Numbered from the stretch's first letter, positions 9,964-63,283 are shown. The stretch is DNA of 64,000 nt from a virus (IMGVR_UViG_3300019378_000003); one strand, 5' to 3'. The notes: a model not told the origin generated them from the sequence alone. Made by a program: numbers and translations.

Positions 9964-9987
9964 TTTAGGAAAGGAGAGTATATAGCT

Positions 9988-11031: not shown

Positions 11032-11054
11032 TGAATAGAGGTTTATAAATACTG

Positions 11055-11086
11055 AGGGTGGGTCTAGCACCCACCCTTATTTTTTG
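11055..11086 (+). terminator. Rho-independent terminator.
   Basis: GGGTGGGT-ctagc-ACCCACCC hairpin followed by TTATTTTTT. Confidence 0.7.
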
Positions 11087-11105
11087 AGAAAAAGGAGTTT
11101 GTACT

Positions 11106-14171: not shown

Positions 14172-15233
14172 ATGAAATTTGGCGTACGCGAAATTTGTGA
14201 CGTAGTATTACGTCGTAAGGCCGCTGGTTGGTTCGGTAAGCTTTATTTGGAAAAGGACATGCCTGTTCTTTTCTTTGATACTTTGAAGACCTCTAACCTT
14301 GAAGGCGCAGCTACTACTGTTTATGCTCAGGGTGGTAAAGGTAATCCTCGTCTTGTTGCTTGGGAAGGTGACCGTACCGTTACTTTCACTATGGAAGACG
14401 CATTGATTAGTCCTCAGAGCTTCTCTATTCTTTCTGGTGCTGGTTTCATGGATGCTTCTAGTGAAAAAGCTATCTATGTTCACCAGACCGGTCAGCTTGA
14501 AATTAGTACTGATGGCAATTTGAATTTTGAAACCAAGCCTTCTGCTGGTGAAGCTGGTAAGTTTGCAGATATGTATTTGATGCTTTTGGATGAATATGGT
14601 AATATTAATACTAACTTCATGCCTATTATGATTAAGCCTGAAGGCCGTAGTGATAATGAACCTGGTGTTTATGCAGAATCTTATCCTGTAAATGGCGAAG
14701 GCGAAAGTCTTGTTAATAAGATTAAGGCTTTCATTGTAGATTATAATGAACGTAATAAAACTGTAAATGGTTTTAAGCCATTAGAGTATACTGTTAATGA
14801 AACTCTTATCAAGCCTACTGAAGATGCCTCTGTTGAAGAAATTGCTGCTTACAATAAGGCTAAAGCTAATAACATCGTTATTGGACCTGGTACTGTAGTT
14901 TTTGTTGACTATTATGTAAAGGCTGACACTGGTGTTAAGCAGATTGATATCGAAGCTGATAAGTTTGGTGGATCTTACTATCTTGAAGCTTCTACCTTGT
15001 TCCGTGATCAGGGTACTGGTGAAGACCATCCTGCAGAGTTCGTTATCCCGAACTGCAAGGTTCAGTCTAACTTTACCTTCACCATGGCTCCTTCCGGAGA
15101 TCCTTCTACTTTCACCTTCACAATGGACGCTTTCCCGGACTATACTAAGTTTGATCGCACTAAGAAGGTTCTTGCCGCACTTCAGATTGTTGAAGACAAG
15201 GCTGGCTTCGGCGCTCTTACTGCCAAAGCTTAA
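14172..15233 (+). CDS. Major tail (tube) protein candidate, 353 aa, no TAG.
   Basis: AAAGGAGG then ATG 14172, ending at TAA, followed by a strong terminator. The gene is TAG-free and lies upstream of the tape-measure region. Confidence 0.45.
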   Translation: MKFGVREICDVVLRRKAAGWFGKLYLEKDMPVLFFDTLKTSNLEGAATTVYAQGGKGNPRLVAWEGDRTVTFTMEDALISPQSFSILSGAGFMDASSEKAIYVHQTGQLEISTDGNLNFETKPSAGEAGKFADMYLMLLDEYGNINTNFMPIMIKPEGRSDNEPGVYAESYPVNGEGESLVNKIKAFIVDYNERNKTVNGFKPLEYTVNETLIKPTEDASVEEIAAYNKAKANNIVIGPGTVVFVDYYVKADTGVKQIDIEADKFGGSYYLEASTLFRDQGTGEDHPAEFVIPNCKVQSNFTFTMAPSGDPSTFTFTMDAFPDYTKFDRTKKVLAALQIVEDKAGFGALTAKA

Positions 15234-32200: not shown

Positions 32201-35200
32201 GAACATAATGATTATAAATTTGAAATGCAAGAATGGGGCAGTATTGGATTCTTGTGGGATAACCGTTTTGAAAATACAGTTTTATAGCTAGAAGGTAATT
32301 GTAAAGGATAGGTAATACGGCAAGCAATTGTCTTTGATTAGAATGTATATCCTTCATCTCTTGTTAATACTTGGGATGGAGTTGCTCTTTCTGTTGATGA
32401 AGCTACTGGCTCTATTTTAGCAAATCGTATTGCGACAGGTACTAAAGATAATAGCGGTAGATTTACTGGTATTATGATGGGTGATTGGTCAGCATATGGT
32501 GATGAGTCTGTTGATATTGCTGGTATTTATGGTTTTGAAAATGGTCAAGAGACTTTTGGATTTTTGAAAGATGGTTCTGGATTTATTGGTGCTGCTGGCG
32601 CAGGTTAGATTCGATTTGATGGCCGAAATGCCATGATTGCCAGCGCATTAAAAAATGAATTTGGAACTCCCTCTTGTTATATTAATCTTAATCCTGCTAG
32701 AGTTGGTAATCCTAATTCTGTTTTAAATAGTGATAGTCAATATTTCTTATATTGTGAAACTGATAGAGCAAAAGATGCAGAAGTGGGATTAGATTAGTCT
32801 TGGGTTAATAAATTTTTTAAGAAAAAACGCAAAGTCGATGCTGATGGTAATTATATTACAGATGAATTTGATCAGTATGTTTACGAAGAAAATGATAAAG
32901 ATTATTTCATTGTTGACCCTACTCGTGGTGTATTAACTACTGGTGGTATTATTGCCAGATACGGTTATATTGGTGACTGGCTTATTGATAAAGGTGGTTT
33001 ATCATGGTATTCAGAATAGGGCTTGACAAAAGAAAATTTTTATGATACAATATATTTTGGAAATTGGACTAGAAATCCTTATTGTATTATGTATCGTGAA
33101 GAATACGAAAAAGAAAAAGAAGATACTTATAAATCAATAAAAAATACTTATGATAAAAAACGAGAAGAATTAACTAAATAGTATGAAGAAGATTTAAAGA
33201 AAATTAAAATGACTGGTACAATTAAAGATGCTTAGGAGCTAGAAAAATAGTATAAAAAATCTTTAGATGAATTAAATACAGAAGAGAATAATGAGTAGAG
33301 TGCTGCATTAGAAGCTTTTACTAAAGAGAGTAAATATCAACAATATTTAATGTCTGCTGGACGATTAAATTAGAATCGATTTAATTATGCTAATAAAGGT
33401 GTAATGAATTTTGGTGTAACTGCAGATGGATATTTATTTAGCCAGTCTGGTCGCATCGGTGGTTGGATTATTGGTGCAGACACTTTAACTTCTGCTAAAA
33501 CAAGTGAAATTGTTGATGATTAGGGAAATATTATATCTGTTCCTGCGGTTGAATTGAATGGTGTTGAAGGAACCGCGACATTTGGAGTTATTAACTCTGC
33601 AGGTCAAATGCAAGGTCAAGTTAATTTGGCGGGCTATTAGATGATTGGATAGAGTGATAATACTTCTTATGCTAATTTATTAAGTACTACCTCTATTAGA
33701 ACCTTAGATAATAGCAAAGCAGATTCTTTTAACTTTAAAATGACGTTAATTAGTAACGGTAATGTAGATGAAGATTAGTTTGTAATTTCTGAGAAATATG
33801 CTGTTACAGCCGTAGAATATTAGTATGGAGAAAGTGATAACGAAACTATTTCTCCTACAGCTTGGGTTTAGGATTATATTGGAAACTCATTAAATAATAT
33901 TGCAGTAAGAGGAAATCCTAAAAAATTCTTATGGGTGAAACAAATTTTTACGATATAGCCTATGGAAGGAAAATCTTTTCCGTTAGAAACTGATGCAATT
34001 TGTCTTGGAGAAAAAGTTAATGAAGAAATTTATTATAATGGGAAAGTAGAGCAATGTTATTTAAAATTAAAAGCTATTGAAATGTAGTATAATATTGTTG
34101 CAGAAAATGAATCGATTGATGTAAATTCTACTTCTTGGAAAACAATTGATGAACTTAAAAATAAAGATGAGAAAATTGCAATCACTAAAACAACACCAAA
34201 AATTATTACTAAATTAATTATATCATCTGTAGAGCATACTGTTGTCGATGAATCTAGTAAAGAACAATCTAAATTAGATTTTACTTATAATATTGGCATT
34301 ACAAGTGCAACATTTGAATTATTTAATACTGATAATGCTTCTGGAAATATTGGCAAAACAGAGGATATTGCAATAAAGGGTGACACTTCAACTTTATCAG
34401 GAGAGACAGGACAAACTTTTCAAATAGGACATTTTATGGCCAATAGTAAAGTAAAATTTGAATAGTTACACACTTGGTCTCTTCTTGAAGAACAAAAAGG
34501 TTATTCATTAGGAATGTCCTTACAAACAGGAGAAGGAAATTCTTATATTGTTAAAACTGATGAATCCACTGGCGACACTACGGAAGAATATAATACAACT
34601 AAATTTTATATTTTCCTTGCTCCAACAATGGCACGATTAGCGAATAGATTTGCTTCACTTGGCACATATGCAAATCCATGGGATTATATATATGCTGGTA
34701 CCTCAATATTTATTAATGGCGATGCAGCTGCAACTTAGCGATGGGCAGAAGATAATATTAGATAGCCTTTGTGGAATAAAATTGTTGCAGTAAACAATTT
34801 GGCATCTACAGCTTATAAGAAAGCAAAAGACGCTGCGAGCAGAGCTCATTAGGCGGCAAACACTGCAAATGAAGCATTGAAATAGACTTTTGTTAGTGCT
34901 AAATTTAATATGACTGGCGGAGGATATGGAAAACAATTAGTATTAATTCGAAAAAATGGAGCGACTTTAACCCTCGCTCCTGTCGCATCGCTTATACATA
35001 AACATACTCCCACTGTAACATGTTCTGAATCTAATGGCGAGATTACAATTAAAGTTTCTTTAAGCAATACTTCAATGAATGGTGAGGGCTCTGATTCTTT
35101 TAATATGGCCAGTACCGCTTTTTTCAGGAAACATGCATATGCTTCAGGAGGTAAACTTGATAAAGGCGGTCTCAATGGAGGATATACTGAAAGATATCGT

Positions 35201-35383
35201 AATATTACTGTTTCTGCGATACTGGCCGAAGATGGAACTACATTGGTTGAAAAATAGACTTATGATTGCCCAGATTATGGTAATGGATATAATAAAGGTT
35301 ATGAGACAGGCTACGAAGCAGGAAAAAAAGCTGGCTATAGTTTAGGGTATTCCGATGGACTCGCTGATGCTCGCGGAGCTTAA
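29267..35383 (+). CDS. Giant tail/baseplate protein, 2038 aa, many in-frame TAG.
   Basis: GGAG then GTG 29267. Track ORFs 29267, 30158, 31058, 31310, 31712, 34514 and 34910 are all frame 2. I translated 32288-33070 by hand and found TAG only, no TAA or TGA. The gene ends at TAA 35381-35383. Confidence 0.6.
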
Positions 35384-46787: not shown

Positions 46788-47117
46788 ATGGCAAGCTTTT
46801 ATGGAGGCGTTGGCATATCAGGTGGCTCCGGTGGAGGTTCCTCAGGAGTTGGAATCGCAACCATTGAATTTGATGAAAATCGCAACTTAATTATCTATCT
46901 TTCTGATGGAACCAAGAAAAATCTTGGTATTATTGATGGTGCGACTTATACACCAAAAGTGGTTGACGGAGTAATTTCCTGGACCAACGATTAGGATTTA
47001 GAGAATCCTGATTCATATGATATCACCGCAGGACTCGATGGAGGAGAATACTGGGAAGGTGTTACTTCTGAATCAGAACAACCCGCGGATGATAATCAAT
47101 ATTGGGAATCAATATAA
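46788..47117 (+). CDS. Small Gly-rich protein, ~109 aa, 1 in-frame TAG.
   Basis: GGAG then ATG 46788 (the track's TTG 46779 is too close to the RBS). A TAG at 46992 is read through to TAA 47115-47117. N-terminus is GGVGISGGSGGGSSGVG. Confidence 0.35.
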
Positions 47118-47140
47118 TTATTTGAAGGGGTGAAAAATAA

Positions 47141-48373
47141 ATGGCTAAAATTCCTGTAGTATTTAAGTACGGTACTAGAGCTCAATATGACGCTTTAGCT
47201 ACTAAGGATGAACATGCTCTTTATTTCTTAACTGACACTGGCGAAATTTATCGTGGTGCTGTTAATCTTGCCCGCGGCAGTCACTTTGAAGGTGAACTTA
47301 CTGTTGATGACGCAGATGATATGGCCGTTATCGCACGTGTATTGAACGGTCAACCCGCAGTCCAAGATGATATTTTTGTCGTAAAATCTCTTATCGCAGA
47401 TGGTAAGTATTCATATACTTCCTATATCTATGATGAGAATGGAAATTGGAAGGCCATGGACGGCAATTATAGTGCCAAAAATGTTTATTTCCACAATGAC
47501 TTAACTGCTACTGCTCCTATTGGTGTTGTAACCATTCCGGAGACTGGTAGTGCTACTATTAAAGCTGAAGGCAAGAGCCTTCATGATGTTCTTGTAAGCA
47601 TTCTCGCTGAAGAGCTTCAGCCCGAAGCTACTGCTCCAACAGTATCTGTTACTTCTTCCACTAGAGGTTCTTATGAAGTTGGTAGTGTTATTACTCCAAA
47701 ATGGAGCGCAACTTTAAATCCAGGTTCTTATACTTATGGACCTGAAACTGGTATTGTAGCTACCTCTTGGACTATTACTGATAACGCAAGTACTCCTCAT
47801 GCTTCTAGCGAAGCATCTGGATCTTTTGCTGATGTAACAGCTGAAGATGGTAAGAGTTATGTTATTAGCGCAACTGCTACATATGATGCTGGTGCAGAGC
47901 CTGTGACCAATATGGGTAATCCAGCGGAAGAGGGAATTCAAATTCCTGAGGGTGCAGCAACAGGTAAAGTAACTGTTGTTAGTTCTTACCGCAATTCTTT
48001 CTATGGTGTATATACATCTAAGGAAGTAGATGGTGTACAAACTGGTTCCACTTCTGATTCTATCCGTACACTTAAAGCAAGTAATAAAGCATTGGCTAAT
48101 GGCGGTAGCTTTGATATCGCAATTCCTGCTGATGCACAGCGTGTTGTGATTGCTTATCCAGCAACCTTGAAAGACTTAGATCAAGTATTAGATGTTAATG
48201 ACTCTAATGCTAATATCGTTAGTGCTTTCACCAAAGAAGATGGTACAGCAAAAGCTACAATTCAAGTTGCTGGCGCTAATGGATATAATCCTATTGATTA
48301 TAAAGTATTTAGCACAGACTTTGCTGGCGCTTATGGCGCAACAAATACTTTCAAAGTAAAAATTAAGGCGTAA
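47141..48373 (+). CDS. Tail fiber/receptor-binding protein, 410 aa, no TAG.
   Basis: N-terminus reads MAKIPVVFKYGTRAQYDALATKDEHALYFLTDTGEIYRG, the fiber-anchor motif shared with the 50014, 51765 and 59000 genes. Confidence 0.5.
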   Translation: MAKIPVVFKYGTRAQYDALATKDEHALYFLTDTGEIYRGAVNLARGSHFEGELTVDDADDMAVIARVLNGQPAVQDDIFVVKSLIADGKYSYTSYIYDENGNWKAMDGNYSAKNVYFHNDLTATAPIGVVTIPETGSATIKAEGKSLHDVLVSILAEELQPEATAPTVSVTSSTRGSYEVGSVITPKWSATLNPGSYTYGPETGIVATSWTITDNASTPHASSEASGSFADVTAEDGKSYVISATATYDAGAEPVTNMGNPAEEGIQIPEGAATGKVTVVSSYRNSFYGVYTSKEVDGVQTGSTSDSIRTLKASNKALANGGSFDIAIPADAQRVVIAYPATLKDLDQVLDVNDSNANIVSAFTKEDGTAKATIQVAGANGYNPIDYKVFSTDFAGAYGATNTFKVKIKA

Positions 48374-48387
48374 GGAGGAAGAGAGTT

Positions 48388-49983
48388 ATGGCTTTAAACT
48401 TTGGTAAAGGTAATAGAAGTATAGCTTTCGCCCCGACTGCGGCATTCCCGCTTAACGCGAATAGCTATTTTGAAAGTTATGACCTCGCTCTTGCTGCTGC
48501 GTTAACCGCAAAGCCAGCAGGCGACACTACTACTAAATATTATTTCGGCCAAGAAATTGCTGTTGCCGAAATGGTAGATAACGTACCTTAGAGTGCGAAA
48601 TTATATATCATCGCTCCTGAAGCTCAAGAAGATGGTTCTGTTGTAGGAACTCTTCAAGAGGTTGGCTCTGCCACTGACGGCGATGGTAAATCTATTGAAC
48701 TTGTCGAAGGCGTTCTTTCTGTAAAGGATTTCGGCAAGCGTTTTTATAAATACATCGCAGCTACAGAAACTGAAGAAGCTAAATATGAACTTGTTGAAGT
48801 TTCTGAAAGCAACCCTTGGAAATCCGGTTTACAACCTCGCATTGATGCCGAAGGTAATATCGCTTGGTACGAACCCAATCCTACTACTATTGAAGGAGTA
48901 CAAGATTAGGTAACTGGTATTCAAGGCGATGTCGAATAGGCTCAACAAGATATTGACGCAGTTGAAGAAAACCTCGTAAAAGCTGAAGAGAAAATTGATT
49001 CTATCAATGATACTCTTTATGGCACCGACGGTGAAGAAGCTGTCGAAGGTCTTGTTGATAAAGTAGCAACTCTTGAAAGTGAAATGGATGCTGTTCAAGG
49101 AGCTATTGAAAATACCTATACAAAAGAAGAAGTTGATGGTCTTGTAAGTGGAGTATTCCATTTTAAGGGCGAAGCCGAAAGTGTTGATGCACTTCCTGCT
49201 GCTTCTGCTGAAAATGTAGGTCATGTATATCAAGTTGGTGATCTTGAATATGCTAGCAATGGTGAAGAGTGGGTTGAACTTGGTTTCGTTGTTGATTTAA
49301 GTTCTTATGCGACTAAGACTTATGTTGATGATGAAGTTAAAGAAGTTCAAGATGCTCTTGATATTGCTGAAGGTATTATTGAAGGACATACTTCTGATAT
49401 CGAAGAAATTAATGGTGCTATCGAGCGTATCGATGGCGAAATTGATGTTCTTGAAGAAGCTGATAGAGGATTTACTTCTCAATTTGAAACCGTAAATGGC
49501 AAGATTGAAGCCCTTGAAACTGCGGATGAAACATTTACTTCTCAATTTGAAACTGTAAATGGTAAAATTGAGGCTCTTGAAGCTGCAGATATTGCTTTTG
49601 ATACTAAAGTTGGTTCTCTTGAAACTACACTTGGTAATATAAATTCTAGAGTTGGCGCTCCTTCTGAAGGTTCTACAATTACTGTATTGTTCCCAGCTGT
49701 TGAATCTTTACAGAATAGAATTAATGATTTAGAAATTAATTCTGGCGCTGGCGAATTAAATATTATTAATGGTATTACCATTAATGGAACTGCTCTTACT
49801 CCAGACGGTTCAAAAAATGTTGCTCTTCCAATTTTTGATGGCTCCAATATTGGTCTTGTACCTGTTGTTGGTGATGATATTGTTACTGCCACTTCTTTCT
49901 TGTCCGCAGAAGGCGCATGGATTGATGTCGCTTCTATGATTGATAATAAGATCGATGAGGCATTAACTTGGGAAGAAATTTAA
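48388..49983 (+). CDS. Coiled-coil fiber protein, 531 aa, 3 in-frame TAG.
   Basis: AAGGAGG then ATG 48388. Track ORFs 48388 and 49084 are in the same frame. The gene ends at TAA. It contains a perfect 20-aa (60-nt) tandem repeat, GFTSQFETVNGKIEALE(T/A)AD. Confidence 0.5.
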
Positions 49984-50013
49984 AAATAAAAAAGAAAAAG
50001 GGGATATTTAACT

Positions 50014-51687
50014 ATGGCTTTAACTGATAGCATTCGTTTTAGATAGGGTAGTTTAGCCTCCCTCGTTAATCAGTCTGTTGTTAATGGTTCTTTATGGTTC
50101 ACCACTGACGAAGGTGCAATTTATTTAGACGTTAATGGTAGCCGTGTTCGCTTCGGTGATTTTGTAACTGTTGCTAACGTTGCTTCTCTTCCTACTGCAG
50201 GTCATGCTTATGAATCTGCTCTTTACTATGCAAAAGCTGAAAATGTTCTTGCTCGTTGGGATAAAGCCTCTAGCAAGTGGGTTCAGCTTAATGCTGCTGG
50301 CTTAACCAAGGTTAATGTTACTGGTGGTGGCAATGTTCTTGCTGGTGCCACTACAACTGTTGACCCTGAAACTGGTGCAAAGGTTCTTACCTTTACCACT
50401 CAGAATGTTGCAACTTCTGAAGAACTCGGCACTATGCAGACTCGCGTTTCCACTCTTGAAACCAAGATGGAAGGCGTTCAGGCTGACATTACAACTTTAA
50501 AGGGCACAGGCGAAGGTTCTGTTGCTAAGGCTGTTGCTGATGCTAAGGCAGACCTTCAGGCAAAAATTGATGCAGTTGATGCTCTTGCTGATCAAGGTAT
50601 CGCAGATGCTGCTGCTGCAAAAACTTATGCAGAAGGCGTTCAGAGCAACTTAAATGCTACTAATCTTCGCATGGATACTGCTGAAGCTGATATTGATGCT
50701 TTACAGACAGCTATTGGCGAAGGTGGCAGTGTTGACGAGAGGATTGAAGATCTAAAAGAAGAAATCCTTGGTGATGCTAATAGTGCAGCAGGCTCTGCGA
50801 CTGTTTCTGGTGCTAATAAAGCCGCCGCAGCCGCACAAGCCGCCGCAGATGCTGCACAACAAGCTGCTGATGATGCTCAGGCAGATGCCGATGCTAACGC
50901 AGGTGAAATCAGCGGTCTTAAGACTCGTATGGACGGAGCAGAAGCTGATATCGACGATCTTCAGGCTGCTGTTAATACCTTAAATGGTGATGACAAGACT
51001 GAAGGTTCTGTAGATTATAAAGTAGCTCAGGAAGTTGCTAAAATCTTAAATGATAACGACGCTTCTGATATTGACACTCTTGAAGAAATTGCTGCTTGGA
51101 TTAAGAATGATACCGCAGGTGTTGGTTCTCTTGTAAGCCGTCTTGATGCCGTTGAATCTAAGAACAATTCTCAAGATACTTTAATTGAAGGCTTAGATGC
51201 TGAAATCGATGCTAACAAACAGGCTGCCGAAAAGGCCGTTTCTGATCTTGAAGAAGCACTTATTGGTGATGCTGAGACCTATACCGATCTTGGCAAGGCT
51301 GAAGATGCTATTATCGCAGCTAAGGCTCAGGCTGATAAAGGCGTTGCTGACGCAGCTGCTGCTTCTGCAGCCGCCGCCCAGGTTCAGACTAATTTAAATG
51401 CAACTAATGGTCGTGTAGAAGGCGCAGAAGCTGATATCGATGACCTTCAGGCCCGCATGACTCAGGCAGAAGCTGATATTGACGCTCTTGAAGCTGCTGA
51501 TACTACTATCCGTGGCGAATTCGCAGCTGCTGATACTGCACTTAAGAATGAACTTAAAGGCGATGCCACCACTTATACCGATCTTGGCAAAGCAGAAGAC
51601 GCTATCCAGGCTAACACTGGTTCTATCAATACTATCAATACCAACATTGAAGCTATCAATGCTGTTTTGACTTGGGATACTTTTTAA
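50014..51687 (+). CDS. Coiled-coil tail fiber, 557 aa, 1 in-frame TAG.
   Basis: ATG 50014 is in frame with track ORF 50434, through a TAG at 50041. N-terminal motif reads ...GSLWFTTDEGAIYLDVNGSRVRFGD. It has repeated AEADID(A/D)LQ heptad blocks. The gene ends at TAA, followed by a terminator. Confidence 0.5.
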
Positions 51688-51695
51688 TTAATAAG

Positions 51696-51735
51696 AAAGG
51701 CGGATATTAACTAATAATATCCGCCTTTATTTTTA
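51696..51735 (+). terminator. Rho-independent terminator.
   Basis: AAAGGCGGATATTA-actaa-TAATATCCGCCTTT hairpin followed by ATTTTTAT. Confidence 0.7.
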
Positions 51736-51764
51736 TATAAATAAGAAAAAAAGGAGGACTCTAA

Positions 51765-54700
51765 ATGGGCATTATGGATTCTCCAGTAAGATTTTTCAAA
51801 GGCTCTAAATCTGCCATTGACAATTTTTAGGGAATTGAAGATGGAAGATTGTTTTTTGCGACAGATACAAAATAGATAATGCTTGACTGTAATTTTACAG
51901 ACAGCGAAGCAAATAACTATAATAAGAGAATTACTTTTGGTGGGTCTACTGGTATTCACTATGCAAATCGCACTTTCACAGAAGATGAAATTGCAGCTGA
52001 TTTGTATGTCTTTTCCATTTTAGATGGTCATATCGATCAAGAAGGAGAAGAACTTCCTGAGATTGATGATCTAATTTTGAACGTAAAAGATGGCTCATTT
52101 TATCGTGTCACAAGACGAGATGAAACAGAGCTTACTGTAGAAGCTACTAAATTGACAATTTCCGGTTCTGGTGGCGGCGGTGGAACCGATGGTGGCGGTG
52201 GATATATTTCACGTACGCTATTATCTGATCGTACCTTATATGCCACTAAAACTTCTGCGAATATTCAAATGAAATATACTTGTTATTCTACTGCAGATGG
52301 CGCAAGTATTCGTGCTACAGTGTATGTTGGTACGGGCAGTGGCAGAAAACAAGTTGATTATTTCCCAGAAGTTAGCCAAGAAGAACCCAATATCGTTAAC
52401 ATTGCGGAATATATGTCTACTTTAAAATTGAATGCCGCCAACACAATTACCATTCAATTAGAAGATGATTATGAAAATTCCATTTCAGTATCTTGTACTG
52501 TATATGTTTATGATATGTATGTTACTCTTGTTGGTAGTAGCATGATTTTACCCCAAGAGAACGATTTTACTTTCCAGGTTCGTCCATATGGAGGCCAAGA
52601 ATTATCTAATCGCGCATTAGTATATGAATTGCGTCAAGCAGGTAGTGATTCTGTTATTGCGAAAGAAATTGAATATACCACTGCTGACAATGGCTCTTCT
52701 GCGAATAAAACTATTAAAAAGCAAGAGCATGGCGAATATACTTTAACTGTATATTTACAAGGTTAGATTCCTAAATCTGAAGAGTATTTAACTTCTCCTC
52801 CTATTCAAATCGAAATTCCATTTTATAATGCGAATGCTTCTTCTCCTCTAATTACTGCCACTTCAGGTATTACTTCTGCCACACAGTACGATAAAATTAA
52901 AATCGATTACATGATTACATATGGAGCAACAAGTACTTCATACGTTAAATTGTTAGCAGAATATGATGAAGGCTTTGGCTCTCGCGTAGTCGGAGAAGAA
53001 ATGATTGTTGAAATCAATAATAAGGAATTCTATAATTGGAATGTAACTTTTGATAAAGCTGCAACTTATTATTTATCAATTATTTATTTGGATTCAAACC
53101 AAAATGAAACCGATTATGCCAAAATCTTTACTCCAATTATTGTTGAATCTTTTGATGAAGAAGTTCCAGTAATCAATACTGCTGATCCATCATTAATGTT
53201 ATACTTCACCTCTAAAGGTAAGTCTAATAATAGCCAAGATAAAGATACTTGGGTTTCTAAGTATTATGGTGGAGAAGTAAAAGCACAATTTTCTAACTTT
53301 AACTGGAACACTAATGGTTGGATTGAAGGCCCAGACGGTTTAGGTTTACATCTTACCAATGGCGCAAAAGTAGTTATTCCTTATTCTCCATTTAAACCTG
53401 ATAGTAACGGTTTGGGTGCAGAAAATTTAGGTCGTACTATTGAATTAGATTTCAAGATTTCTAATGTGCGCGATGAAATGGCTCCTGGTATTCAATGCCG
53501 TTCTTACTATACAGCTGAATTAGATGATGGCACCAAAGAAGAAATTACCCAAGTAGGTTTTTAGATTTATGGTAATAAGAGTCAGATGAACTCTGCTTAG
53601 GTAAAATCTAAAATTACTGATATGAGTGGATGGACTACGATGTTCAAAGCAGGAACACGTATTCATTTAACCTATGTTATTAATAGTGTAAATGATACTC
53701 CTCCTCGTATTTTTTATACTTTCTTAAATGGTGTTACTTCTTCTCTATCTGCTTATACAGAAACAGACCAATTTATTGACTTATCTGAAGATAAAGATAA
53801 AAATATTTTCGATTCTGAATTTATTTTTGATTCTTCATATATGGATATTGATATTTATTCAATTAGAGTTTATCAATCTTCATTGAGACCAAATGATGTT
53901 CTTCGTAACTGCATCGCAGATAAATCTTCTGCTACTGACGCAGCAGCAGAATGGAAATAGAATGATGTTTTAACTACCTTCGAAGATAGAACAACTGGTA
54001 TTGACCTTGAAGAAGTTATAAAGCTTGGCAATATTCCTTATATGGTATTTTATGATGGTCGTGATACCGGTAGTAAGAAAGATGAAGGCTGGGAAGACCC
54101 TGATTTTGAAGACGGCGAATTCCCGACTTCTGATGAATCTAGATTGCCAACTGGTAAAAAGGACTTCCGTCACATGGAAATGTATTATGTTGACCCAATT
54201 CGTGGTGAAAAATATAATATTGGTACTCCTGATAGTCCAGTAATTGTTACTTGCTACGCTCAAGGTACTTCCTCTCTGGAATATCCTGTCAAGAACTTGC
54301 GTATTTATTTCCGCAAGAAGGATGACGGCAATCACCCGAATCAAATTGCTAAATATTCTTTAGAAGATAAACTTCCCGCTGTTAACTTGTTTACTTTAAA
54401 AGCAGACTACATGGAATCTGCTAGTGCTCATAATACTGGTACTGCTAATATTTTGGATGAACTTTATAATTCAATTGGATTAAAGAGTCCTGCTGCGGCA
54501 GCTTATCCAGATAATAGAATTGTAACTGCGATTTTGGGACATCCTATTGTTTGTTTCTATAAGCCATATAAAGCAAGTGCAGAATTCCCGGATCGTTATC
54601 AATATATAGGTCGTTATAATTTTAATTTAGATAAAGCTACTCATGAATTATTCGGTTTTGAATCCGAAATGGAGGCATATGGTTCCCAGAAGAAACCTTG

Positions 54701-57700
54701 GGGCTATTTACAGAATGCGGATGGCTCTTTAAGAGACGGTTTTAATACAGCTCTTGAATTTACCGATGGAAAAGTATATTATTCTGAACCTAACTTAGAA
54801 TCCACTAAAATTGAATTCACTCAAGCTACAGAAGAAGACCGCGAAAAGGCATTTGGTAAGCAAGCTGCTATTGGCCCAATGTATGAATATAAGAGCGCAG
54901 AAGAAGGCGTTACTTGTGTTCAATGTTGGGAGTTCTTAAATAATACTAGTCCATTAGTTGGATTTAGAGAATATTGGGATGAAGAAGTAGATAAAGTTGA
55001 AATAACTCATAAAGATGATACCGGAAAAACTGTAGTAGATCATGCTCCTTATGCTGACTGGACAGGCGCTTTTGAATCTCGTTATCCAGAACATGAAGAG
55101 GAAGCTTCAACTGATAAACGTACTTTAGCAAGAATGTTAAACTGGGTTGCATCTACTAATAGACATCCTGACGTTGTAGCAAAAGAATTAGCAGAACAGG
55201 GAAAAGATACTTCTCCTGAAGCTATTAAAGCAGAACAAGAAGCCAGATTAAATAAATTTAATTTAGAATTTGCTGAATATTTTGTTCCAGATTTTGTTGC
55301 TTTCTATTATGTCATTACAGAGTTTCTTCTTATGATTGACTCTCGTGCTAAGAACATGATGATGGCATGTTTTGATGCCGATCCAGAAAATAATACTGGA
55401 CATTGGATGCCTATTTTCTATGATATGGACACAATGCTTGGTGTTGATAACTCTGGTAACTTACGTTTCCCATATAGCCAAGAGGATAATCAACTTGATA
55501 CTTTTAATGCCGCAGGTACTTATGATGCTACTCAATATAGTGTATTGTGGTGTAATTATCGAGATGCTCGTTTTGGCGATATTAAAGCTATGTATCAAAA
55601 ATTACGCAAAGGTGGAGTATTTAATTATAATCGTCTTTTAAGAGCTTATAACGCTGATCAAGCAGACGCTTGGCAAGAAGTTTATATTAACGAAGACGCC
55701 GATTATAAATACATTGATCCTCTTGTTAGCGGATATGAAGTTTGGTTCGATCCAGAAGGCAATATTATTACTGCTGAAGAAGCAGCAAAAATTGAAGGCG
55801 CTAAGAAGAAGAGTGCTGCAAACTATTTATATGCCGCTCAAGGTACTCGTTCGCAGCATCGTAATTATTGGTTAGAAAAGCGCTTTAATTATTTAGATTC
55901 TAAATATAATTATTCTCAAGAGGTATTAGGCTCTTCTGCAGGTTCTGGTTTGAACTTCCGTTTGAATTCTGACCTAGCACAAGGCGCAGGTAAGCCCAAG
56001 TTCTCTGGTGACTTTGATTTCATTTCATTAGCAGACCAATATGTAACTGTTGACTATGCTCAAGGAAATATTGTTGGTCCTGTTCGAATTTATGCAAATC
56101 AGCCTTATCATGTTGATAGTCCTTTTGAGACATCGACTGACCAAGAAATGTATATCTATGGTCTTGATGATATTGTTGAACTGGGTGACCTTTCTACCAA
56201 ATACTTTAATAAGTTCCAGTTAAATAAGGCAACAAAATTACGTAAATTAATTCTTGGTTCTCACGAAGGTAATTTCAGTAATCCGAACCTTGGTACGGCA
56301 AATATTTTTAATATTGGTGAGAAGGGAGCAAATGTTCCATTCCTAGAGGAAATTAATATTGAAAATTGTTCCGGTATTAAAGATGCTTTGGATTTGTCTG
56401 CTTGTCCTTATTTACAAAAAGTATATGCAAAAGGCTCAGCAATTACTACTGTAAATTTCTATCCCGGTGGAAACTTATAGCACATAGAATTGCCATCTTC
56501 CACTACTGCTCTCTCCTTGAACGGCCAATTGTTCTTTAATACTAAAGATCATCCTGAAAATTTGAGCATTGAGAGCTATCGTAGATTAGCAAAAATGCAT
56601 ATTACTAATTGTCCTCTTGTTGATTCTAAGACTTTGTTTAAGAATACTATTTATACTGCTAGTTCAGGTAATGATGTTAGCTCTCTTTTAAATATTCGCT
56701 TAGATGATTTAGATTGGACTTTTGACGTAGATGAATGCGTATTTAAAGATAATGTTTTAACTAATATTCCACTATTAGATATTTTGGTCACTTTAAATGG
56801 TCTAAATACTGCAGGTAACAATATTACAAGAGCAGATATGAATAATGACTATTTGGCAGGAACTATCACTATTCTTAATGGCAATAATTATGGTATTAAT
56901 GAATTGACACTATATGAAAAGTATAGTATTTTATTCCCTAATTTACAATTTAAGTATACAGAAAATAATTATTGTACAAAAGCCTATTCTATTAATATTA
57001 ATAATGCTCAATCACAAATTCTTTATTCTTATTCAAAGAAAATTAAAGCTACTGATATTGCTACATATAGTGAGAATTTAGAATCTTGGTTCACTCCAGT
57101 TGTTTTAGAGTATAATGAGATTGTAGATGAAGTAACAGGTGAAGTTTCTCGTGTTCCAAAAAATTATGACGAAACAAATCATTTGCCTCCTCTTGTAAAA
57201 CAATCTACAGCACAGTATATTTATGATTTCCGTGGCTGGGGATTAGAGAAGCCATTAGATTTCTCTGAACGTGATTATACTTCTGACGAGAGAGAACAAG
57301 CTATTGCAGATTCTCTCGCAATTAAAGTATCTTATACTATTGATGAAGATAATAATTATACCTATACCGCAGAAAAAGTTAATGGTTTTGAATTGAACAT
57401 AGATGCATTTGGTACTGACCAAGAAATTAATTTTTATCCAGTTTACGCCGCAGATTTGAACACTCATATTGTTCGTTTCTACGATGGTATAAATAGTGAG
57501 CCATTAAAGGTTGAGCGTGTAAAATATGGTTAGTCAGCGACTCCTCCTCAGAATCCGCAGAAACTTGAATTGCCCGAAAACGATAAGACAGTTGCTTACT
57601 CTTATCCTTTTATTGGTTATAATCTTCCTTACGACAATATTGTTATGGAGCTTAATACCATCGCCCAATATGGTACAAAGAAACCTTTATCCAAAATGAC

Positions 57701-58760
57701 AGGCGATGAAATTAGTCGAGATTACTTCAAACCTGCGAGTGTTAGTGAAGGTGTAGATTATCTTACCAGTGATGAAATCGCTATTGGTATTAAACCTGAC
57801 TTTGCAGACGAGGCTATTATTATTCCTTCTACTTATGACGGAAAACCTGTTGGTCTAGTTAGAGTAGAGTATGGCGACTAGCAACCTAAGAACTTACGTC
57901 GTATTTTCTTCGAAGAAGGAAATACAATTAAGGTTATCGGCAATAATTTTATGGCAGAAAACAAGAATATTGAATTCTGTGATTTGTCTGCTCTTGGCTC
58001 ATTATCACTTATCGGTATTCAAGCTTTTATGAATTGTTTTAATTTAACATTTAAGTCACTGCCGAATAGCGTTACAAAAATTGACACTAATGCTTTTGCT
58101 TATTGCTCTTCAATTAATTTTTCTGCTTTACCTGATAAGTTAGAATCATTAGGTCCTAATGCATTTAGGTCTTGTGAATCTTTAGGAGAAATTACAATTA
58201 ATAATACTTAGCTCACACAAATCCCTGATTACGCTTTTGAACGTTGTACTAATCTTAAGATCAAGGGCGAAACTATCAATTGTTTAGTTACTACAATTGG
58301 TTAGTATTCATTTGATTATTGTAGTAATTTAGTTTTGAATTTTGATATTGATTCTACTAATAGACTATCTACAATTAAAGATTTTGGCTTCGGTCATACT
58401 CCAATGTTAAATATCAATAATTTCCCAAGCAATCTTACTTCTATCGGCACTTCAGGTATGAGTTCTGTAAATGGTGCTGGAGGCTTGTTGACAGCTAATG
58501 TAATTCCTAAGACTGTTACCTCAATCGGTGGTGGCGCATTTATGTTTAGAAAATTGGCAGATGAAAATCTTGGTATCCTTATTATCGAAAATCCAAATAT
58601 TATTTTAGCAGATAGTGCTTTCTCATATTTGTCAGGGGTAAAGGAAATTTGGGTTCCAAAATCTGTTGATTTAAATAGTGCTCCTTGGAATTCTGAAACT
58701 TGTTTTGGATGTACTCAATCCTCTCCTGGTGTTATTATAAAACACAATCCTAATGGCTAA
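51765..58760 (+). CDS. Giant tail fiber/receptor-binding protein, 2331 aa. Central CotH-like region, C-terminal BspA-type leucine-rich repeats.
   Basis: AAGGAGG then ATG 51765. Nine track ORFs (51879...58335) are all frame 0. I checked every junction (52766, 53564, 53960, 56480, 57533, 57881, 58211) and found TAG only. The gene ends at TAA 58758-58760. N-terminal anchor motif reads FKGSKSAIDNFQGIEDGRLFFATDTKQIMLD. The LRR region reads ...IGIQAFMNCFNLTFKSLPNSVTKIDTNAFAYCSSINFSALPDKLESLGPNAFRSCESLGEITI... Confidence 0.6.
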
Positions 58761-58775
58761 TGAAGAGGTATTATT

Positions 58776-59000
58776 ATGAAAAAAGTTATATTATATCAAT
58801 ATGTAAATGATAACAATGAAGTGGTAGTAACTACTGAGCCGATGTCAGAAACATCGGCTCAGATCTTCTATCTTTTAACTGCGGACGAAGGTTATTATTT
58901 ATATAATAAAAAATTACATCATAAAAGGAAGTCTACAATTACTTCCGATTATCTTGCAGATAATTGGGAAGAATTAAAATAGAAAGAAGGAAATGAGTAA
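58776..59000 (+). CDS. Small hypothetical protein, 74 aa, 1 in-frame TAG.
   Basis: ATG 58776, ending at TAA 58998-59000, which overlaps the next ATG. Confidence 0.35.
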
Positions 59001-60349
59001 TGGCTATTATAGCTTCTGAACATGTATTAGGTCTTGCGATGGGCCAAGAGGCGAAATTAACTACGCCTGGCACTACGGGTTATTTAACCCCCAAGGCTGG
59101 TATGATGTACATTACAACAGATACTCATAAATTATTTGTTGATACTGTTGATGGTACTCGTATTGCGATTAAATCTCCTGAAGCTGCGAAAGTAACTAAT
59201 GCTTTTACTATTAAGGTTGGAGGCACTGCTTTAGGATCTGCCTTTAATGGTTCTGCTGCTAAAACAGTTAATTTTGTTGCTGGTACAAACATGCAGCTTG
59301 TTCCATCTAATAATAATACAATTACAATTAATAATACTTTGTCTATTCCAACCTCTTTGAAAAATCCTTATGCTTTAACATGGGGAAATAAATCTTATGA
59401 TGGTTCTGCTGCGAAAGAAATTACTTTAGAAGATTTCGGTATTACCAATGTTCTTCACTTCTTGGGAACTACTACTGATACTAATGTTGTAGACAACGGT
59501 ACCACCAAGACTATTACTATTGGTGGCGCTTCTGTTACTGCAGTTTCTGGTGATATCGTAATTAGAGACAATGTTGAATATATCTGGACGGGAACCGCTT
59601 GGGAAAAGCTTGGAGACGAAAATCTTTGGGTTCCAAATACTCGCACTGTTAGTGCTGGTTCTGGATTAACTGGTGGCGGAGCATTATCTGGCAATCTTAC
59701 TATTTCTCACGCTACTTATAATTGCACCCATCCAACCAGTGGCGATTTTGTGTCAAGTATTGCTGAAACCAATGGTCATGTTACAGGATATACCAAGACT
59801 AGCTGGTCTAGCGTAAGAAAAACTTTAGCTTTAAAAATTAATGGCACTGCTCAAACTACTTATGATCCATTTGGCTCAGCAAATCAAAGCTTTAATGTTC
59901 CTGTAATGACTGCAGGAGATTCTTCCAAGGCAAGTACAATTGGTTTAGTTCCAGCCGCAGCTGCAGGAGCGACTACTCGTTTCTTATGCGCCGATGCTAC
60001 TTGGCACTCTCTTGTAGCGGGTACCGGTATTAGTGTTAATGGATTAACTATTAGTAATGCTGGCGTACGTAGTATCACTAAAAAGTCTAATGGTGTACTT
60101 ACAATTGCTACTGGAGAGGCTTCTGGTGATATTACAGTTTATAGCTTACCAGCAGCAACTACTAGCGCTCTTGGTGGTGTAAAAGTTGGTAACAATATTT
60201 CTGTAGATAGTGGTGTAATCAGCCTTACCGCAAATAATGTGAAAAATGCATTGGGTGTTGCTACAGCTAGCGCAGATGGTTATTTACAAAAAACTGATTT
60301 TGCTCTATTCACAGAAGCTCATGATTCTATTGTTTGGGGTACTTTCTAA
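59000..60349 (+). CDS. Tail fiber protein, 449 aa, no TAG.
   Basis: N-terminal motif reads ...GYLTPKAGMMYITTDTHKLFVDTVDGTRIAI. The protein is Gly/Thr/Ser-rich and beta-rich. C-terminus is ...SADGYLQKTDFALFTEAHDSIVWGTF. It ends at TAA, followed by a terminator. Confidence 0.5.
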   Translation: MAIIASEHVLGLAMGQEAKLTTPGTTGYLTPKAGMMYITTDTHKLFVDTVDGTRIAIKSPEAAKVTNAFTIKVGGTALGSAFNGSAAKTVNFVAGTNMQLVPSNNNTITINNTLSIPTSLKNPYALTWGNKSYDGSAAKEITLEDFGITNVLHFLGTTTDTNVVDNGTTKTITIGGASVTAVSGDIVIRDNVEYIWTGTAWEKLGDENLWVPNTRTVSAGSGLTGGGALSGNLTISHATYNCTHPTSGDFVSSIAETNGHVTGYTKTSWSSVRKTLALKINGTAQTTYDPFGSANQSFNVPVMTAGDSSKASTIGLVPAAAAGATTRFLCADATWHSLVAGTGISVNGLTISNAGVRSITKKSNGVLTIATGEASGDITVYSLPAATTSALGGVKVGNNISVDSGVISLTANNVKNALGVATASADGYLQKTDFALFTEAHDSIVWGTF

Positions 60350-60459: not shown

Positions 60460-60927
60460 ATGCCAAACATTATTTTTGAGAATGGCGGTCATTTAAGAAC
60501 GACTCAATGTTCTGCAGATGAAGTATATGGTATTGAATCTCTTCAAATTTACATTCCTACTATTTATAATAATTCTCAAATTTTCCTTATGCTCAAGAAT
60601 AAGTAGAATTTATATGAAATAGTAGAATTAGTAAAAAGCAAAAGAGAAAAAAACCATATCATTTGTAAGATTGCCGCAGGTTAGAATTTTAGAGTTTCTA
60701 ATGATTTAATGACTTTGGCAATCTTAATTCTTGATCCAGTAAAAAATATATTTGAATTTAGTAAGGAAATTGAAATTAATCTTACAACTGATAAATATAT
60801 TATGGCGCGGCAAATTCAATTAGCGGCGCAATTAGGATCACAAGTTTAGGCTTATTATCAAAAGATAGTAGAGCTTACTGAAGAAAATAAAAAAATATAT
60901 GAATAGATGAAAGGGGTACATATATAA
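60460..60927 (+). CDS. Hypothetical protein, 155 aa, 4 in-frame TAG.
   Basis: AAAGGAG then ATG 60460, in one frame to TAA 60925-60927 (TAATGA overlap with the next gene). The track ORF 60334-60606 is a 5'-overextended fragment of this gene. Confidence 0.4.
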
Positions 60928-62627
60928 TGATAGTAAGAGTTCCTTCTTATACTGAAGATGCTATCTTGCATGGTGAATATCAAAAATTATTTGCCGCAGC
61001 AGAAAAGAAAACAGACCCAGGTACAACTATTACTAGTTTACCAGAATATTTTAATGCCCTTCAAAAAGATGCCAATTTGCGTGGTATTGGACGTTTTGCT
61101 CGTATTCCTCTTGATGAAGATTTATTTTTAGTAAATTTAAATGATCGTTCTATTACTGTTCCTCCACATTTCCAAAAATATGGTGTTGCAGTTAATGGAG
61201 ATCATCTTGCTGAATTCTTATTCTTCCGTGTTGATAGATATTTTGATCAAATGGATTTATCTGAATGTGAATGTCGTATTGAATGGATGACTGCAGGAAA
61301 TAAACCATTGGCGGCTTATACACCAGCACATGCTATTGATTTAGTGTTTGAAGCTCCAATTGATCCTTCCATTAATCCCAAGCCTACTCATGGCGATATT
61401 ATTTATGCTGATGATAGTGAAAATGAAGAAGACCGTGAAAATGGAGATAGAAGTGCAATTATTTTTGGATGGCCTTTAGATAATCAATTTACTTCTGAAG
61501 TTGGCGATGCTAAATTTGCAATTCGTTTTGTTTAGTATGATGTCAATGAAAAAGATGGAACTAAAGAAATTGTTTTCAATCTTTTAACTTCTCCTGCTAC
61601 TGTGAAAATTCTTCCAAAACTTCCTATTGATTCTGAAATGCTAGAAATGGTAGATTATAGTGCTACTTTGGCTTCTCGTCCTGTATATTCTGGTTTAATT
61701 AATAGCACTGGTCTTAAACCTGTTATTACTTCTTATAGCTGGGCTGAAAAAGCTTATGAAAATTTGGAAGAAAATGGTCAAGTAACATTAAGTGTTACGG
61801 CGACTGACCCAGATCCTTCTAAACATCCTTTAACTTATCAGTGGTTTAAAGATTCAAAATCACTTTCAGGAGAGACACAATCTTCATATGTTGCCACTGA
61901 GGCTGGATTGTATCATGTTGTTGTTATGAATGCCGTAGAGGATGAAGAAGGCAATCAAATCAGTACGACTAGTATTGCTACTAATCCTTGTTTAATTCCT
62001 AGTGCAGGCAAAATTGCTATTGATTATGAAGGTTATCCATTACAGCTATTTTCTAGCGGTGAATATGCAACTTCTGAAATTAAAGTTAAATTTGTTCCTG
62101 CTCTTGAGGCAGATCATAATCTTGGAAAGATTAATTATTCTTGGGCCGAAGATGGTATTGAGATAAATACTGGTGCAGTTGAAAAAGCAGGAGATTTCTA
62201 TTGGGAAGTTCCATTGACAATTGAAAATATGGCTCATGGTAATTTTGTTTTAAATGCTACTCATGTATTAAATAAAACAGAATCTGCTACGGTAGAGAGT
62301 AAAATGATTGAAATTCGTCCTGCCGCACAACAACCAGAAGAAGTTGTAATTAGTGCAAATGAAGACCGTTCTATTTTTGAATGTTCTTGCGTTGTACCTG
62401 GCAATGATGATTTACAGTATACTTGGTCTTATACTAAATCTGAAGGTACTTTGATTTCTATTTCTTCCGGTTGGGGAAATGAAAAAACTATTTCTATAGA
62501 AGCTATTGAAGCAAAACTTGGACGTGAAATAAAAGCTAAAGAAGCTTTACATGTTGCAGTGCGTCAAATTCGTTTTAATAATGAAGCAAATGCAAGTACA
62601 ACTGCTAGCGCCAGTTTTAATCTTTAA
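60927..62627 (+). CDS. Virion protein, 566 aa, 1 in-frame TAG. N-terminal domain is paralogous to the 62657 gene.
   Basis: Track ORFs 60927 and 61602 are in the same frame, separated by a TAG at 61533. The gene ends at TAA. Reads ...GDHLAEFLFFRVDRYFDQMDLSECECRIEWMTAGNKP...FAIRFV. Confidence 0.45.
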
Positions 62628-62656: not shown

Positions 62657-63283
62657 ATGAGTTATTATCTCGCTAATTCTTATTATAATGCTCTGTTGGA
62701 TATATAGAATAATTCAGGTACATAGCTTTTAAAGTTTGATTTAACAGACGAAGAAGATATGATAAAACCTCTTATTGAAATTGATCTAAATAAACGCTTA
62801 ATTATTTTACCTCCTGAATATGATCCTGAGCAAGGTGGTTTTTTAAGCCTAGAAAGTGATCATTTAGCAGAGTATTTATATTTTGTAGTAGATCGTTATT
62901 ACGAAGATATGGATTTATTTCAAACTGCTATTGTGGTAGAATATATTAATGCTGCAGATAAGCCGGAATCTCGAATATTTCCGGTCATGTTAAAAGATAT
63001 TACTACTATGCCAGGCAAAATTATTTTTGCCTGGCATATCGGCAATGAAGCTACAAAAGCGGCTGGCATGATTAAATTTGCAGTACGTTTTTATTTAGTT
63101 CATCCGACAGAGGCTAAATTTGAATATAATTTAAATATTTAGTCTTCACAGAGTGAAATTAAAAAAAGTTTAGGGCATATAGACTGGGAAGAAGAATATG
63201 CCGATATTTTTGATCCTTCTACTCTTGAGATTATTTTATCTGGTATTGAAATGGCCAGACATGTATATTGGACAGATGTTTAA
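62657..63283 (+). CDS. Virion protein, 208 aa, 3 in-frame TAG. Paralog of the N-terminus of the 60927 gene.
   Basis: AGGAGG then ATG 62657, in frame with track ORF 62759, ending at TAA 63281-63283. Reads ...SDHLAEYLYFVVDRYYEDMDLFQTAIVVEYINAADKP...FAVRFY. Confidence 0.45.

Follow-up and report, generated by a model that had tools for sequence, protein, structure and literature searches.

What is a kinase-type fold doing in a protein that appears to be a phage tail fibre? The question is raised by a plus-strand gene of IMGVR_UViG_3300019378_000003, a viral stretch of 64,000 nucleotides (nt) that was analysed whole and is hereafter called the window. A sequence-only reading of this gene had noticed a central region tentatively likened to CotH-family atypical kinases and, at the C terminus, BspA-type leucine-rich repeats (LRRs). 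We conclude, with a probability of roughly 0.7, that the gene encodes one giant modular tail fibre or receptor-binding protein with an exchangeable LRR tip, and that it belongs to a TAG-recoded siphovirus. From N to C terminus, the proposed order is an attachment domain, a Gly hinge, beta-rich and possible lectin-like domains, a CotH-type domain, beta- or LRR-like shaft domains and a distal BspA-type LRR_5 solenoid (Table 1). The N-terminal domain would anchor the fibre to the tail, the solenoid would bind the host receptor and set host range, and the CotH-like module would form the conserved, probably catalytically competent core of the fibre family.

The first matter is whether there is one gene. 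Translated in frame, its 2,332 codons end in TAA and are interrupted 11 times, in every case by TAG and never by TAA or TGA. TAG recoding is window-wide: when TAG is treated as sense, the summed open reading frame (ORF) length of the window rises from 17,436 to 26,784 amino acids (aa), ORFs of 3,809, 2,331 and 2,044 codons appear, and a contiguous plus-strand block of long genes emerges, including ORFs of 3,795 aa (92 TAG) and 1,992 aa (34 TAG). Within the fibre gene, PHROG 14959 aligns unbroken to aa 274-1651, across five TAG codons (E = 5.6e-100), PHROG 24896 matches aa 128-968, and P0001, a metagenomic protein that is 87% identical, has K and Q at the positions of TAG codons 1572 and 1923. 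Because the alignments to PHROG 14959 and to P0001 are continuous, we read the fibre as a single ORF across its TAG codons, which upholds the 2331-aa fibre that the sequence-only reading had placed at 51765-58760.

The alternative is that the TAG codons are genuine stops and that the 2,331-aa protein is a read-through artefact of separate proteins (295, 217, 112, 812, 347 aa and so on), fragments of the kind that standard-code ORF calling yields. Also on that side, ARAGORN found no tRNA of any kind in the 64-kb window, and hence no suppressor tRNA. Genuine stops are nevertheless barely credible, given that all the interruptions in this one frame are TAG, that a single hidden Markov model (HMM) and a homolog align across them, and that the portal, terminase-like and tape-measure genes of the window are likewise interrupted by TAG only. 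In addition, TAG encodes Gln in phAss-1 and its relatives, human-gut siphoviruses with tape measures of ~3,150 aa, and recoding without suppressor tRNA genes is known from some phages (PMC10607447). By analogy with phAss-1, TAG is most likely read as Gln in the source phage; opposite the TAG positions of the fibre, relatives have various residues (Q, K, R, T, I and others), from which the inserted amino acid is not deducible. The density of TAG along the window is uneven, with none in 9274-11675, 14172-15233, 47141-48373 and 59000-60349 and dozens in the giant ORFs.

The central region can be linked to CotH through its relatives. A search with the TAG-free segment aa 733-1571 returned 469 relatives, many of which, at ~30% identity, carry a precomputed match to the Pfam CotH family PF08757; when seven homologs were rescanned, all seven exceeded the gathering cutoff (E = 1.7e-13 to 3.7e-5), and the match in one of them, P0023, spans the full model. 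BLASTP aligns the target with P0023 at E = 3e-55, placing MIDSRAKNMMM...HWMPIFYDMDTMLG opposite MVDSRAKNMF...LWYPVFYDLDTAIG, within the P0023 CotH match. An alignment of 16 diverse CotH-like domains from members of the phage family (A1) was assembled, and PF08757 was matched by 9 of the 16 (best E = 5.2e-14) as the sole Pfam family found. On the CotH side, the PDB was queried with an approximate CotH consensus, which retrieved segments 44-133 and 207-253 of 5JD9 that served as reference sequence only. A search with a 5JD9 fragment returned short fragments only, and P0121 (98% identical) was then used as the query in an exhaustive representative search that supplied 21 bona fide CotH proteins of ~360 aa (A3). 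Profile-profile alignment of A1 with A3 by hhalign gave a probability of 95.9% (E = 5.5e-9) over 213 columns that cover both lobes.

The predicted fold points the same way. An AlphaFold2 (AF2) model of aa 780-1420 reached a predicted template modelling score (pTM) of 0.73, with predicted local distance difference test (pLDDT) values above 90 in the core. Searched against the PDB with Foldseek, this model significantly matched only the Bacillus cereus CotH structures 5JDA and 5JD9 (E = 2.8e-5 and 6.2e-5; probability 1.00), with a template modelling (TM) score of 0.57 on the target length; atypical kinases of the phosphoinositide 3-kinase (PI3K) type rank next, at non-significant scores. In BFVD, at least 18 phage proteins match the model significantly (E = 1e-17 to 1e-4, probability 1.00).

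Several results weigh against a CotH assignment. PF08757 (gathering score 23.8) gave no match to the full protein at E<=1, none to the slice aa 746-1410 at E<=10 and none to aa 780-1420. Sequence searches of the PDB with the target domain and with the homologs P0118 and P0023 gave no CotH match; the family profile A1 and the core profile A2 likewise did not reach CotH by sequence in the PDB, and the A1 HMM scored 5JD9 fragments no higher than 200 shuffles of each. The AF2 model has a mean pLDDT of 66.5, with 189 residues below 50, mostly in insertions, and the domain contains a large insertion at ~aa 970-1050. Because the A1 HMM did not rise above the shuffles, we claim no direct sequence link to solved CotH, and because the direct and family-profile searches were negative, the connection is drawn from profile-profile, fold and transitive evidence. 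The lack of a direct Pfam or PDB sequence match for the target and the family profile is what would be expected if the resemblance were a chance occurrence of a motif (D-x4-N ... D-x-D) on an unrelated fold. That possibility is very hard to maintain when the profile-profile alignment extends through both lobes, when CotH is the sole significant PDB fold match and other atypical kinases come next, when PF08757 is the only Pfam family detected among the A1 members, and when the BFVD relatives are independently annotated as CotH. On the profiles and the predicted model, we therefore take the CotH-type kinase fold of the central module to be a real kinship, remote, perceptible at the profile and fold level and invisible pairwise.

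The active-site motif, from D1192 to G1226, lies at nt 55338-55442 and matches the 5JD9 CotH motif NFDGFVHNYALY...IPWDYDATWG. In the hhalign alignment, D1192 and N1197 stand opposite D-x4-N, and D1220, D1222 and G1226 opposite D-x-D...G. The 5JD9 counterparts, NFD224GFVHN229 and PWD247YD249ATWG253, have a 23-residue spacing, as do D228 and D251 of Bacillus subtilis CotH, the substitution of which abolishes activity according to a passage of PMC7821199 that cites Nguyen et al. 2016. The equivalents of all five target residues are invariant in A1 (16/16). Among retrieved relatives covering the respective columns, the D, the K at +4 and the N at +5 are kept in 117 of 117, the equivalents of D1220 and D1222 in 115 of 115, and that of G1226 in 114 of 115. 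That D, N and DxD stay so strictly invariant while overall identity is ~30% speaks for selection on catalysis. The tentative CotH assignment of the sequence-only reading thus stands on homolog Pfam matches, hhalign and Foldseek: the motif falls inside the segment it had pointed to (~55250-55500), and the structure prediction and the conservation of catalytic residues that it had proposed to check both came out in its favour. Its expectation that HMM searches would recover both LRR_5 and CotH was borne out for LRR_5 (PF13306), and CotH (PF08757) was not recovered on the target itself.

Whether the module is still an enzyme is a separate question, and here too there are points on the other side. 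V842 lies opposite the invariant N-lobe Lys of CotH (PKKSY; presumed nucleotide-binding), which could mean impaired nucleotide binding, and the position is held by R or K in 10 of the 16 A1 members and by V or I in 6. The N-lobe of the model has large insertions and low-confidence loops. An extracellular fibre has little access to ATP and no obvious supply of it. CotH proteins can serve as receptor ligands (PMC9973265). These points weigh against a working kinase; they would suit a dead pseudokinase with a purely structural or adhesive role as a scaffold of the fibre, in the manner of the CotH invasins of Mucorales, which serve as ligands; this is a possible reading that we nonetheless doubt. 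For a mere scaffold, an invariant catalytic Asp, Asn and DxD metal site in 115-117 relatives would be unexpected, and V842 adjoins K843, which is invariant in the phage family, with a basic residue at the aligned position in most A1 members. We consider it an even call, judged from these residues, that the CotH-like module is an active phosphotransferase-type enzyme.

If the module is active, its substrate may be a component of the host envelope, during adsorption, or may be components of the virion as they are assembled, when ATP is replete. A virion-borne enzyme performing Mg-dependent phosphoryl transfer, on the host envelope in the one case and on fibre components in the other, is a specific proposal that we regard as unlikely at present. 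In the envelope variant, the CotH-like module could, for example, phosphorylate or cleave a glycopolymer that contains phosphate, teichoic acid or capsule being candidates. In the assembly variant, fibre components would be phosphorylated, in a manner likened to the patterning of the spore coat by CotH.

The assignment of the distal tip to the LRR_5 family is solid at the level of sequence. PF13306 matches aa 2058-2189 at E = 7.5e-26 (90.9 bits, where the gathering score is 27.7) and, in the C-terminal slice, three stretches at E = 6.1e-27. Nine to ten units of 23-26 aa run in register; the consensus across 34 tip homologs is IPNSVTxIGxxAFxxCxxLTS, and the tandem-unit pattern (L/V)xxIxxxAFxxCxxL is present in the target. 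A search with aa 2040-2331 returned 5,787 proteins, all of them LRR_5. The AF2 model of the TAG-free last 151 aa (2181-2331; pLDDT 83.9, pTM 0.80) has periodic short strands, and its top 15 Foldseek matches in the PDB are all LRR_5-type surface proteins, at weak scores (E = 0.04-1.3, probability <=0.89), among them Joint Center for Structural Genomics (JCSG) structures from Bacteroides, Faecalibacterium and Eubacterium, TpLRR and PcpA. The model is consistent with an LRR solenoid.

Comparison with P0001 indicates where this tip begins. Identity is 94-96% in conserved parts of the CotH-like domain and 69-93% in the other 100-aa bins up to ~aa 1982, and from aa ~1983 onwards, including in the LRR module, it falls to 33-38%. 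Other ends follow the same CotH-like core in relatives: LRR_5 (17 of 120 best matches), DUF6273 (PF19789) or the variable repeat (VR) of a diversity-generating retroelement (DGR). From this pattern we infer a receptor-binding fibre with an exchangeable tip, in which the LRR tip would be the host-recognition module. The sequence-only reading had seen BspA-type repeats from ~57900, close to where they begin (~nt 57927), and had proposed a distal receptor-binding module borrowed from bacterial adhesins. The drop in identity at the tip favours the first part of that proposal. Capture from a bacterial adhesin is plausible and goes further than the comparison allows: the closest tip relatives, P0284 (63%) and P0285 (50%), which cover the whole module, lie on short metagenomic contigs, and bacterial LRR_5 proteins are ~30-38% identical. 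The latter range covers all remaining tip homologs, including proteins on Mb-scale bacterial contigs, and some homologs carry dockerin, cohesin or type IX secretion system (T9SS) domains.

A DGR at the fibre locus was considered and rejected within the 64-kb window. No direct-repeat pair resembling a template repeat and variable repeat (TR/VR) was found at the 3' end of the gene within the window, and the window has no reverse transcriptase (RT)-like ORF; the three YxDD matches that it does contain belong to the tape measure, to a coiled-coil fibre and to an Ig (immunoglobulin)-like protein.

At the other end of the protein, the N-terminal motif (V/I)xFxxG...G.L(F/Y/W)FxTDxxxI is present in the target and in the genes starting at 47141 and 50014, and loosely in that at 59000. 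The copy in the gene at 47141 matches Pfam PF24243, 'Phage tail tip domain' (E = 5.2e-7), and a Pfam scan of the target's own N terminus gave no match. From this common motif we infer that the N-terminal ~130 aa are the virion-attachment end, by which the fibre would be anchored to the tail; the shared anchor motif and the Gly-rich hinge at 52165-52205 (here nt 52164-52208) were both noted from the sequence alone and recur in our analysis. Similar Gly runs follow the N-terminal domains of the relatives P0086 and P0118. Mtd_N (PF18454), which occurs in distant relatives, was considered for the N terminus, and the Pfam scan detected none in the target.

Between hinge and CotH-like domain, aa ~471-732 may be a ConA/Laminin_G_3-like lectin domain, a possible and weak assignment. 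Laminin_G_3 matches in P0086 and P0118 are sub-threshold (E~1e-4) and lie just upstream of the CotH-like domain; the region of the target is tied to the family by PHROG coverage and by BLASTP to P0044 (E = 3.6e-21), and a Pfam scan of the slice aa 471-732 found no Laminin_G_3 and no other match. Beyond the CotH-like domain, an internal LRR-like stretch at aa ~1480-1700 reads LRKLILGSHEG...EEINIENCSGIKDALDLSACPYLQKVYAKGSAITTV. The region of P0023 aligned to it has a sub-threshold match to LRR_EndoS (E = 0.0014), and the slice of the target has no Pfam match.

A kinase fold with an intact catalytic loop could also belong to an effector delivered into the host to manipulate its signalling (division, dormancy or sporulation), and such a role has been proposed for CotH-containing DGR targets (bioRxiv 2020.04.01.020958). 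For the present protein this seems improbable. The target lies within a cluster of fibre genes with a common N-terminal motif, combines a Gly hinge with a long beta-rich shaft, and is most divergent in its C-terminal binding module; no translocation signal was identified in it. Its relatives adjoin baseplate genes or lysis cassettes, and only their C-terminal ligand-binding tip is diversified. A giant modular tail fibre remains the reading that we prefer.

A fibre of this architecture has precedents, and the remark in the sequence-only reading that CotH would be unusual in a virion protein does not hold: in the literature (PMC5758913, PMC8008677, bioRxiv 2020.04.01.020958, 2024.11.15.621889) and among the BFVD matches, CotH is recurrent in phage proteins. 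Wu et al. 2018 described DGR targets of ~2,000 aa, with CotH and Laminin_G_3 as main motifs, and inferred a phage origin (PMC5758913); PC_00012, a viral target of 2,284 aa reported by Roux et al., contains a CotH-like kinase (bioRxiv 2020.04.01.020958); Benler et al. 2021 described phage CotH-family kinase domains fused to hypervariable C-type lectins as 'currently unstudied' (PMC8008677); and domain group 3 of Macadangdang et al. 2024 is the giant CotH/Laminin_G class of DGR targets. The target is like the class formed by Wu f1, Roux PC_00012 and Hankyphage in its size (~2,000-2,300 aa for the class) and in the C-terminal position of a variable ligand-binding module. Its homolog in the Bacteroides phage Hankyphage p00 (BK010646, 31489-38226) is a 2,245-aa variable protein with a homologous CotH-like domain: tblastn aligned 79% of the domain at 29.7% identity (E = 5e-16) and also found matches in 22 other Bacteroides phage records. 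As here, the p00 homolog is a tail-module gene, a 6.7-kb ORF preceded by genes for the baseplate hub and minor tail proteins, and giant fibres of the Hankyphage type also contain lectin-like and LRR domains. The two differ in that p00 ends in a DGR-diversified C-type-lectin VR and the target in an LRR_5 solenoid, and in that Hankyphage is a temperate phage of Bacteroides, whereas the target comes from a TAG-recoded, phAss-1-related siphovirus, probably of Firmicutes.

Each module can be compared with its cellular counterpart. Like Bacillus CotH (5JD9/5JDA), the CotH-like domain is predicted to adopt an atypical kinase fold with an N-lobe PxKxx(Y/L)xI, a D-x4-N and a (W/Y)D-x-D...G. Bacillus CotH is a stand-alone protein of ~360 aa that acts on spore-coat proteins in the mother cell, whereas the module here is ~600 aa, has large insertions, lies inside a 2,331-aa fibre and carries Val where the Lys is invariant in CotH. 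The tip shares LRR_5, a ~23-aa unit and xAFxxCxxL with proteins of the BspA, TpLRR and PcpA type (4FD0, 4FDW, 4FS7, 6MLX, 4CP6); unlike the bacterial proteins, to which it is ~30-38% identical, it sits on a phage fibre and not on a surface anchor (dockerin, T9SS). The BFVD kin of the CotH-like model include gp353 of Bacillus phage G, proteins of uncultured Siphoviridae and Myoviridae annotated 'CotH kinase protein' or 'Spore coat protein', and 'Internalin-like' and 'Spore coat protein-like' proteins of the crAss-like phages cr52_1 and cr124_1; several are LRR-annotated. They are shorter than the target (0.7-1.3 kb of protein) and come from unrelated phage lineages. A further relative, the 1,109-aa P0016, combines a CotH-like core with LRR_5 at 10001-15255 of L003, a 187.5-kb bacterial contig (ENA ERZ16021021). 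Downstream of this truncated homolog and of another, small LRR_5 ORF come a Phage_holin_4_1 gene and an Amidase_2/LysM endolysin, and the upstream flank holds ordinary bacterial genes (MatE, MerR). The locus looks like a prophage remnant that keeps the fibre end and the lysis cassette only.

The setting of the gene in the window is that of a tail module. Upstream of it lie a portal gene (phrog_2739, E = 9.4e-81), a terminase-like protein and a virion structural protein (phrog_2729), and the order continues from the tape measure through tail- and baseplate-like genes, with tail and tail-fibre PHROG matches at 38972 and 41814, to the fibre-gene cluster. The tape measure carries PF10145 (PhageMin_Tail) at aa 191-396 (E = 3.8e-29), contains a run of 13 Gly and ends in GGGGGGGH. 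Its length, against 3,149-3,209 aa in phages of the phAss-1 group (PMC10607447), implies an exceptionally long siphovirus tail. Directly after it stands the 1,992-aa ORF; its position would fit a distal tail protein, a hub protein or an equivalent of the structural protein of 1,665-1,733 aa termed 'unusual' in phAss-1 phages (PMC10607447). A sigma-factor-like gene with a C-terminal zinc-ribbon/HNH-like tail lies directly upstream of the terminase-like and portal genes and may be a late-gene regulator heading the TAG-recoded structural block.

The closest relative of the portal is that of the uncultured human-faecal phage MT836163 (56%; phAss-1, 38%), followed by those of ~115-140 kb phages of Enterococcus, Lactococcus, Bacillus and Brevibacillus. 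A search of a phage collection found no relatives at the nucleotide level. The source is best explained as a siphovirus with recoded TAG that belongs to the human-gut phages related to phAss-1, and its host is probably a Firmicute.

The fibre-like cluster spans 46788-60349 on the plus strand and comprises at least five genes. The common N-terminal motif within it suggests that different fibres occupy the same type of site on the baseplate. Two of the genes upstream of the target, at 48388 and 50014, contain internal DNA repeats of 63-78 nt (families D1, D3, D5 and D6). Beyond the cluster, the adjacent plus-strand genes 60927-62627 and 62657-63283 have a common N-terminal region, LAE(F/Y)L(F/Y)F.VDRY(F/Y)..MDL, to which the first adds Ig-like domains matching Hoc-like head-decoration PHROGs. 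On another contig (L002), a homologous fibre gene is followed by a pair of 612 and 208 aa, the same downstream neighbours as here.

Table 1. Coordinates of the fibre gene, its proposed modules and neighbouring genes in the window (nt counted from the first letter; residues numbered in the 2,331-aa protein).
Feature	Position (nt)	Strand	Residues or codons	Basis or remark
Fibre gene	51765..58760	+	2,331 codons + TAA	ATG 51765, TAA 58758-58760
In-frame TAG codons of fibre gene	51828, 51873, 52764, 53562, 53598, 53958, 56478, 57531, 57879, 58209, 58302	+	22, 37, 334, 600, 612, 732, 1572, 1923, 2039, 2149, 2180	
N-terminal domain	51765..52163	+	1-133	Motif in common with neighbouring fibre genes
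Gly-rich hinge SGSGGGGGTDGGGGY	52164..52208	+	134-148	Read from the sequence
ConA/Laminin_G_3-like lectin candidate	53175..53960	+	~471-732	Coverage by PHROG 24896 and 14959
CotH-like slice used for modelling	54102-56024		780-1420	
Predicted CotH-type atypical kinase-fold domain	54243..55457	+	827-1231	hhalign to bona fide CotH
N-lobe strand V842-K843 (YPVKNLRIYF)	54288..54293	+	842-843	hhalign to CotH PKKSY strand
Catalytic-loop equivalent D1192-S-R-A-K-N1197	55338..55355	+	1192-1197	Aligned to CotH D-x4-N (B. subtilis D228)
Metal-binding equivalent D1220-M-D1222-T-M-L-G1226	55422..55442	+	1220-1226	Aligned to CotH PWD-x-D...G (B. subtilis D251)
Internal LRR-like stretch	~56202-56864		~1480-1700	
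Divergent distal tip	57711..58757	+	~1983-2331	Identity to P0001
BspA-type LRR_5	57927..58664	+	2055-~2300	Pfam PF13306, unit register
Sigma-factor-like gene	1988-2920	+		phrog_5767, E = 1.3e-46
Tape-measure ORF	17788-29175	+		3,795 aa, 92 TAG (~2.4% of codons)
1,992-aa ORF	29405-35383	+		34 TAG
Fibre-like gene	47141-48373	+		N-terminal motif in common with target
Fibre-like gene	48388-49983	+		Acidic, repeat-containing coiled-coil fibre
Fibre-like gene	50014-51687	+		N-terminal motif and acidic, repeat-containing coiled coil
Fibre-like gene	59000-60349	+		Downstream of target; looser N-terminal motif

The fibre class is already known; the target stands out by uniting a non-DGR LRR_5 tip, a recoded background related to phAss-1 and a CotH module that Pfam does not see. 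The target is thereby a clearly delineated, LRR-tipped addition, outside the DGR-diversified forms, to a widespread family of giant phage fibres that have a kinase fold at their core. It also carries a lesson for annotation: standard-code gene calling splits the fibre gene into at least 10 fragments, and direct Pfam searches miss its CotH module. The border at ~aa 1983 between conserved shaft and divergent tip offers a concrete module boundary for host-range engineering. The invariant catalytic residues sharpen the question of what role a kinase-type active site has in a receptor-binding fibre, and for this question of the kinase-fold core the cultivable relatives are no less tractable than the uncultured target. 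If the CotH-like module does prove to be a virion-borne enzyme, it would represent a new catalytic class associated with tail fibres, distinct from the known depolymerases, esterases and peptidases.

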